Shown here: positions 1,431 to 4,400 of the stretch, in pieces
Layout of the letters: every line of letters starts with the position of its first letter
Numbering within the stretch: position 1 is the first letter of the stretch
From: a virus
Lineage: Duplodnaviria > Heunggongvirae > Uroviricota > Caudoviricetes
Direction: 5' to 3' (one strand)
Length of the DNA: 22,815 nucleotides
Virus record (IMG/VR): IMGVR_UViG_2609459792_000001
The notes under the pieces: model-generated
Told to the model about the DNA's origin: nothing
Database searches by the model: none
Seen by the model: only the letters and a program-made list of their open reading frames with translations
Program-made: the position numbers and the translations under genes

Positions 1431-4400
1431 TCAGCTGATACTGATGCCTGCGGTGGCTTTCTTCATCACCACAACCAGCAAATCGCTGATACTTGCTGTG
1501 GGATACCAGTCATTTACCAGCCATGATGACACCGAAAACTCCAGCGTCATGTGGCCGCGACCAGCTGGCATATCAATAACACCACTGTAAATCAGCGTAT
1601 TATCCAGCGCGGTACGGTTATAAATTTCAGCACCGTTTTTCCGTACTATCAGGCGGCATGACGAATAAATATCGTTATTCTCCCTCTCATGTTTAGCGCC
1701 GCTGAATGCCACCGCCGGAATAACAATCTGCCGGTCAAACGGCTGATCGTCATAAACCCTGACGGTGATGGTCCCTGATGGCCACCGTTCCGGTGCACGG
1801 GAGTCCCGGGGGAAAGCTTTGCCCACTGTTTTAACGAGATCGCCTTCAATCTGGTTGGCGGACAGTTTTCCCAGAACCCGACAGTTCTCGTTAATCGTGA
1901 CGTTGTTGAGCGTCCCGGAGTTCGCATTCACGTTACCGCTGATATCGGCATTTTTCGCCGTCAGCCGCCCGTCGGTGTCAGGGAAAATCCGGAGGATTAC
2001 CGCCGCTGGTAATGGTGGGAGCCGTCAGGCGTTTCAGGAACACGTCGTTCATGAATATCTGATCGCCCTGCCAACAAACATCGGCTTTGTGTTGCCATTC
2101 GCAGGATTAATCATCGCAATCCTGTCTGCCGCCAGCAGCACCTGACTCTGCATGCCGTCGGGGTGTTCTCAATACCGGCACCATACCCGCATATAAAGGC
2201 GTCCGTCCTGCATCTGCTGCAGCTTCACAGCCCACATGCTGTTCAGGTTATTATTTGTATCAACCTGAACCTTCTGTATCTGCTGATGGCACTCTGGTCT
2301 TCCAGTTTCTTATTGACGGTCTGGTGATTTCATTGCTGACATCCGTAATGGACGTCCTGATTTCAGCCAGGTCAGGCGCAAGCTGACCGTTATCAATCTG
2401 CGTCCACAGCTCCTGAGCCAGATGGGTTTTCCCTATCTCGCCTTTGAAAAAATCCAGATAGCCGGATGCGTCATCACTCGGCTGACCAACAGCCTCCACG
2501 AATGCCGATTTGCCAACGGTGTTCACACTGCGAACGTAAAAATAATAATTATGGCCCGGCCTGATATTGATACTGGCGGCTATCCAGTACAGCGCCGTCC
2601 AAGATAGCGGCTGTGGTTTCAACCTGCCTGATATCCGCAATCCGCTTTTCCGAGAACCAGAACTCAAACTGTACCGTCGGTCATAAACGCAAGATGCGGC
2701 GTGGCGGTTATCTGAAAATAGCCCGGCGTCAGCTCAACCGCGACGGCCTGCGGTGCGGCAATCCGGAACGATACCGAGCCGGATCGCCCTGCTGCCCCAC
2801 CATTTACGCCCGGACGTCAGCTGTACCCCAGCGCCAGTTGGTGAAGCGTAGTGGTTTCCGTCGTCCGGGCCGTGCTGACCAGCCGCTCACTGCCGTCATC
2901 CGCTGCCACGGTCAGGCGAAGCAGGAAGCTCACGCCCTTCACCACCTTCGGCGTGTCCCAGCGCGCCAGCACCTGATATTCCCCGCTGTCTGCGGTGACT
3001 TCGGCAGTCAGGTGCTGCACTGCTGGCGGCGTGACACCATTCACCGTGCCGCTCTGGTCACCGTCAAAGTGCGCCCCGTTATCCACGATGGCTTCTTTTT
3101 CCGGTACATGCTGCACGGCAGTGATGGCATACGTGCCGTCATCGTTCTCACGGATACTCACACAGCGGAACAGGCGCTGGCGCAGCGTCGGCAGCTTCAG
3201 CCCCCACACACTGTATTCTGCAACGCCGTCAGGAACCCGGTTCACTTTCACCTTAAGTCCGTCGGTGACGGACTGGACCTCCACGCTGACCGGATTCCCC
3301 TGCCCGTCAACCAGGCTTATCAGCGTGGTGCCGGAGGATGGCAGCGTGATTTCACGGTCGAGCGTCAGCGTCCGGGTCTGGCTGTTCACCGCCAGCACAC
3401 GCCCGCCGGTGCTGATCCCCGCATAGTCATCATCACAGATTTCAATGACATCGCCCGGTACATGGCGAAGCCCTTCTGCGCCCACGCTGAAGTCCACGGT
3501 CTGCGTCTCCAGCAGCTCCGTTTTAATCAGCCACAGCCCGGCGCGGTGTGCCTGCCCCCGGCTGGTACAGCCAAAGGCATCCATCTTCGTGACGTTACGA
3601 CCGTAACGGACAATGGCCTGCGTATCCTCCACAAGCTCTGTCGCCGTTTCCCAGCCGTTATCCGGGTCAATCCAGTTCACCTCAACGGCATTATGGCGGT
3701 CCTTCAGGGCGCTGAAACTGTAGCGGAACGGCGCGCCATCATCCGGCATCACCACATTACTGCGGTTATAGGTCCACACCTTATCCGATGGCCGGTCCTG
3801 CACGAACGTCAGCGTCTGCCCGTTCCATACCGGCATACAGCGCATCGCCGAGCAGAAATCACTGAGCACATCCCACGCCTTGCGCTGCGTGGTCAGGTAC
3901 GCATTACAGGTGATACGCGGCTCCGTGCCACCAAAGCCATCCGGCACCGACTGGTCGCAATTCTGGCCGATGACATACAGCGCCCATTTATCCACATCCG
4001 CCGCACCAAGACGTTTCCCCATGCCGTAGCGCGGATGGGTAAGCATATCCCACAGACACCAGGCCATGTTGTTGCTGTATGCCGGTTTTAACGTTCCGTC
4101 CCAGATACCGCTGTATTGTCGCGTCTGCGGGTTATAGTTCGACGGCACCTGCAGAATGCGCCCGCGAAGATGATAATTACGGCTCACCTGCTGGCTGCCG
4201 AACTGCTCCGAATCCACCTGTACGCCGACCAGTGCCGTGTTCGGGTAGCACTGTTTCACATCGATGATTTCGGTGTATGACGACCAGAGCGTTTTGTTCT
4301 GCAGCTGGTCTGTGGTGCTGTCCGGCGTCATCCTGCGCATCCGGATATTAAACGGGCGCGGCGGCAGGTTATCCACCACCACCGAGGCCAGATACTGTGA

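Follow-up and report, generated by a model that had tools for sequence, protein, structure and literature searches.

Gene J (tail tip / host specificity protein) is found at positions 1431..4880, on the minus strand, of the 22,815-nt window, i.e. the whole stretch of DNA analysed here, in a form which cannot be read as one protein: J-like text can be traced through its central part only by jumping among the three minus-strand frames, as three-frame translation confirms. The locus raises the question of whether these interruptions are mutations of a prophage gene, or defects of the record in which the gene is written. The original prediction had put forward two possibilities, an error of consensus or assembly limited to this stretch and a mutational event of a very unusual kind, and had considered J as written unable to form a tail tip.

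The window is the late region of a lambdoid prophage, with its genes on the minus strand: lysis genes, terminase, capsid, tail genes, K, I, J, lom and the start of stf. It coincides with the whole of a stand-alone contig, JNRJ01000050.1 (22,815 bp), from the draft WGS assembly GCA_000704625.1. One end lies inside the N-terminal region of stf, where the window starts, and the other in the lysis-gene region, as expected of a contig bounded by sequences common to several prophages. The letters are A, C, G and T only, and no ambiguity codes are present; since the window is the full deposited contig, any stripping of such codes predates deposition. A literature search on GCA_000704625.1, aimed at its sequencing platform and assembler, found no paper. 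A Celera-type consensus may have been used for the 2014 batches of E. coli WGS assemblies with JN-prefixed accessions; this possibility is not relied on below.

As written, J is 3450 nt long. Its full-length relatives, in a phage collection and in 5,426 complete E. coli genomes, are all 3480 nt long and open in a single frame, so that the frame-hopping of the window copy does not arise from chance. Nucleotide identity to annotated J genes is 96-97.6% over the full length. Instead of a single ORF of about 1159 codons, the gene presents 26 frame changes, with a first stop at 2817-2819, and three J fragments are called on the contig (687, 120 and 166 aa). Pfam gpJ domains are recognized on these fragments (PF24801, PF13550, PF24421, PF24489, PF12421); together with the gene order K-I-J-lom-stf, where J lies between I and an intact lom (Ail/Lom outer-membrane protein; 764..1363, minus strand), they identify it as a gpJ gene.

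The N-terminal ORF (2817..4880, minus strand) is 687 aa long and ends with LALGYS at the TGA in 2817-2819, as originally described. The damage is concentrated in a dropout zone (1972..2849, minus strand), where alignment to intact J reveals 26-27 events, all of them deletions, accounting for 30 missing nucleotides: the one-nucleotide indels, of which the original prediction had counted at least 8-10, are thus more numerous than it had estimated. The interval it had proposed, 1931-2820, is real, with an upper bound short by about 30 nt, as the zone extends from 2849 to 1972. Similarly, two losses do lie 17 nt apart, located at window 1988 and 1971/1972 rather than in 1990-2010, and the J-like peptides quoted are each present in some frame. 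The N-terminus, in contrast, is not the clean run of 687 codons that had been reported: four events (J nt 2032, 2035, 2043 and 2059-61) already fall within its last ten codons or so. Their total is -6, which keeps the frame, and the window reads TTETTTLHQLALGYS, followed by the stop, where intact J reads TTETTYCFTQLALGNYRL. Because the net loss over the whole zone is 30 nt, the last 541 nt of J (1971..1431, minus strand) are back in the ATG frame; they are identical to the allele of E. coli GE3.

This GE3 gene (L005), indicated below as allele A, is the closest intact allele for the J centre. Indels were placed by gap-tolerant pairwise alignment, as MAFFT multiple alignment fused single-base gaps and produced false mismatches. 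Over J nt 1834-3480 (1647 nt), the window differs from allele A by 30 deleted bases, 0 substitutions and 0 insertions: by removing these 30 bases from allele A, the window sequence is rebuilt exactly. Upstream of nt 1834, the differences between the two are ordinary substitutions only. The lost bases are distributed as A9, C5, G9 and T7, and show no homopolymer bias, with a mean run of 1.60 at the deleted bases vs 1.65 in the regional background. Thirty deletions accompanied by zero substitutions and zero insertions are not a mutational spectrum, and the view, already expressed on the basis of the letters alone, that gradual pseudogene decay is not involved is borne out.

The position of the deletions is equally peculiar. 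In a panel of five alleles, selected solely by overall similarity, so that the statistic is unbiased, 25 of the 30 deleted bases correspond to polymorphic sites, where about 3.3 are expected (binomial P about 6e-20); the maximum reached in 100,000 random draws is 12 coincidences. IMG/VR was also scanned with a 164-nt masked pattern, carrying an N at each dropped base of J 2012-2175: 26 contigs were recovered. Within a panel of 31 alleles, itself ascertained via the masked pattern for J 2012-2175, 29 of the 30 dropped bases are variable; site 2090 is invariant in 31/31.

One contig from the scan, L020, is allele A again. An IMG/VR allele, L009, and allele A disagree at 27 of the 30 dropped bases, an AAC triplet included. 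Between J 2031 and 2807 the two alleles differ at 25 sites, 24 of which are exactly the bases missing from the window. When the three sequences are viewed together over this interval, the window matches both alleles where they agree, and is empty where they differ, in all but position 2658, where the difference is kept, not dropped. L009 fails to account for 2073, 2090 and one G of 2613/2614; furthermore, it diverges from the window past J nt 2808, so that the true second allele would be a different mosaic. No single database allele is a perfect counterpart, or allele B.

In J nt 1-2030, between the dropout zones of I and J, no dropouts are present, and the sequence is a gapless, natural-looking mosaic. 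This requires either that two alleles be identical there, or that a single one be used. Part of this stretch (J nt 601-1833, window 3048-4280), gapless as well against natural alleles, has no close match in the panel: its best full-stretch identity is 98.4% in the 5,426 genomes, while 18 records reach at least 99% over part of it. This part may represent a mosaic allele of the ordinary kind, or else a chimera, built by majority vote from the same pair of co-assembled alleles. A simple parental switch across the dropout zone, from B-like to A-like, was also considered, and is unsupported by the comparison of individual segments.

Damage of the same kind is also present in two neighboring genes of the contig, K and I, which the original prediction had not mentioned. 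Gene K (5495..6237, minus strand) is 743 nt long vs 744, having lost one base at about 6071-6073; it is thereby split into its first 55 codons and its last 191, in different frames. At the break site natural alleles read GCAGG, GAGTG or GCGGG, while the window reads GAGG, a common subsequence that either GCAGG or GAGTG yields on losing one base. In gene I (4941..5597, minus strand; 657 nt, for natural alleles of 642, 648 or 672 nt) the centre, 5199-5393, is a patchwork, which alternates within a few tens of bases between alleles of the 642/648 type and of the 672 type, and contains single-base dropouts relative to the latter. By chance, gene I is still one open frame of 218 codons. The best full match to segment 5130-5420 is 86% among 14,272 natural copies from complete E. 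coli genomes, and no clean parent alleles for gene I were found in 31 loci or in the 5,426 genomes; the exact SNP-coincidence test therefore refers to gene J.

Beyond the centre of gene I, identity of the contig to natural sequences is 97-100%. Outside window 1972-6073, no indel is observed with respect to L004 (E. coli ECCTRSRTH03) over approximately 16 kb, including the genes for tape measure, tail tube, capsid, portal and terminase, with the only exception of an IS1 in L004. This element, an IS1B, occupies L004:22210-22907, corresponding to window positions 21600-21610 or so (about 21605), and is absent from the window. The additional indels found when the window is compared to L003 (E. coli STEC346, NZ_CP091044.1) are the annotated frameshifts of L003 itself: this record, a complete genome, carries at 11987-13735 single-base extras of its own with respect to the window, and its tail genes of the U family, a Z-like gene and FI are annotated as frameshifted or with internal stops. 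The extras are probably sequencing errors in the L003 record, not in the window. A further relative, L002 (E. coli APEC E18005, NZ_CP126946.1), features at 18307-20206 a gene with a reverse-transcriptase domain and one with a SLATT domain, which directly follow the tail fibre assembly gene where the prophage ends, beside prfC; they look like defence-type cargo, and have no equivalent in the window.

The damaged sequence was searched for elsewhere. No exact match to a window stretch of 89 nt, which covers ten dropouts, is present in metagenome, viral and species-representative genome collections. Among the copies of the J centre in complete E. coli genomes, 0 of 12,055 align with fewer than all 30 gaps, and the truncated J is encoded by a single contig on record, JNRJ01000050.1 itself. 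Intact J genes are, on the other hand, abundant: the median number of copies, in E. coli genomes holding a J match, is 3, with up to 16 in E. coli generally. With several J copies in each genome, co-assembly of paralogues is to be expected.

Taken together, what is observed (identity to allele A but for 30 bases, coincidence with allelic SNPs, the signature in K and I, lack of independent occurrences) makes it very probable that the frameshifts are not mutations, and were generated by the consensus step of a draft assembly which had put two alleles of the K-I-J module together. Reads, or pre-assembled clusters of reads, from two alleles of this tail-tip module would have been overlaid; given the median of three J copies per genome, these would most likely belong to two different lambdoid prophages, both in one genome. 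Concordant columns would then give a correct consensus, while in discordant ones neither base would win and nothing would be emitted: a single allelic SNP would appear as a 1-nt deletion, and adjacent SNPs as deletions of 2-3 nt. The written sequence would be, in effect, a common subsequence of allele A, GE3-like, and of an allele B, L009-like, which we infer to have been present in the same read set. As to the software step, the best fit is a gapped multi-alignment, where a mismatch may be turned into two half-gap columns, both called as gaps; column-dropping of this kind appears to be responsible. Stripping of ambiguity codes was considered as a different route to the same result: the K site, where GAGG may be obtained from GCAGG and GAGTG, argues for gap-column calling, on the basis of one site and of parents deduced from natural alleles. 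We thus attribute the broken J frame to the record rather than to the gene, as an artefact; the J frameshifts are almost certainly not real biology, and the genome itself probably contains two intact J genes of 3480 nt. The suspicion of a localized consensus or assembly error is strongly supported by these data, since the lost bases are differences between J alleles, and the remainder matches an intact allele.

Where the second allele came from may be debated. It may have reached the read set through a mixed culture or a contamination, i.e. from two strains or phage variants, and the artefact would be the same, as the dropout signature needs only two alleles, whatever their origin. We regard this source as unlikely: damage is seen nowhere but in the K-I-J module (window 1972-6073), while the other 16 kb or so of the prophage are free of indels against L004, a distribution better explained by paralogous prophages which share the module, and the presence of multiple J copies in one genome is the norm. 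Errors of the sequencing platform, such as homopolymer miscalls or a low-coverage long-read consensus, clustered here by chance, would also produce an artefact, and the exclusive presence of small deletions does resemble some uncorrected long-read or flow-based consensus sequences; nevertheless, homopolymers are not enriched, random errors are not expected to coincide with SNP sites to the extent measured, and the remaining 18 kb or so of the contig are free of such errors, which makes this source highly improbable.

Explanations in which J is truly damaged fare no better. The deposited contig does carry the deletions, and a heteroduplex formed by recombination between the J alleles of two prophages, processed in vivo by removing a base pair at nearly every mismatch and leaving the gap unfilled, would likewise put them at positions where A and B differ, leaving J dead. 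Yet the process would need to hit some 25 of 26 mismatches, normal repair having acted on none, comparable damage would be needed in K and in the garbled patchwork of I, and the sequence is absent from the other genome, virus and metagenome contigs searched; moreover, we know of no repair pathway that turns a mismatch into a 1-bp deletion. We therefore assign to such an event a very small probability, and no evidence was found to support the very unusual mutational event initially envisaged. If true, mismatch processing would have an outcome not known before, with J killed, and K and I damaged, in one event. Broken tail genes are a frequent finding in the cryptic lambdoid prophages of E. coli, and relatives of the window, such as L003, do contain genes annotated as frameshifted. 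A decaying pseudogene, however, accumulates mostly substitutions, which should exceed indels, with indels in both directions and placed independently of SNP sites; the deletion-only spectrum of J, where no base is substituted or inserted over 1647 nt, is of a different kind. Programmed recoding would have to cope with 26 frame changes, beyond any known case. Diversity-generating retroelements introduce adenine-specific substitutions, not deletions, while here all four bases are lost, and no reverse transcriptase is found among the called or annotated genes of the region. Decay, recoding or a diversity-generating mechanism acting on J may thus be considered extremely improbable. The reading we retain is that of two co-assembled K-I-J alleles.

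The biological weight of this result is small, and no conclusion about a defective lysogen is warranted from the record. It is mainly a warning: draft contigs containing multi-copy prophage modules can carry a frameshift at every SNP between paralogues. Such frameshifts inflate pseudogene counts, and yield spurious truncated proteins in databases, as in the case of the J products of 687, 120 and 166 aa and of the split K. The signature, composed of deletion-only differences, zero substitutions and positions matching allelic variation, can be recognized even when reads are not at hand, and could therefore serve as an automatic filter.

Three known systems may be compared to the locus. Truly frameshifted tail genes of cryptic E. 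coli prophages resemble it in having interrupted J, K and I frames within a lambdoid prophage. Real decay, in contrast, proceeds by substitutions, insertions, larger deletions and IS elements, which are common to related strains, while J in the window features only deletions of 1-3 nt, mostly at allelic SNP sites, with zero substitutions and no second occurrence. The consensus errors of collapsed repeats are closer. When reads divide into two groups at fixed columns, a common and documented cause is that near-identical repeats have been collapsed (PMC1868940); as in the reading favored here, two near-identical copies are merged, and the discordant columns are the copy-specific differences (PMC1868940). 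In the window, too, the damage is limited to a prophage module, usually present in several copies in E. coli genomes, on a short contig of its own, errors are found at differences between copies, the sequence elsewhere is identical to a normal copy, and the defect is not reproduced in other assemblies. The difference lies in the outcome, as collapsed repeats usually lead to a majority vote, with a chimeric, full-length sequence, or to ambiguity codes, while here columns were dropped, and each SNP became a frameshift. Finally, J may be compared to lambda gpJ of lambdoid prophages, with which it shares sequence identity, gpJ Pfam domains and the synteny L-K-I-J-lom-stf; it differs in being 30 nt short and divided into many frame segments, and behind the written sequence there is probably an intact J of the ordinary type.
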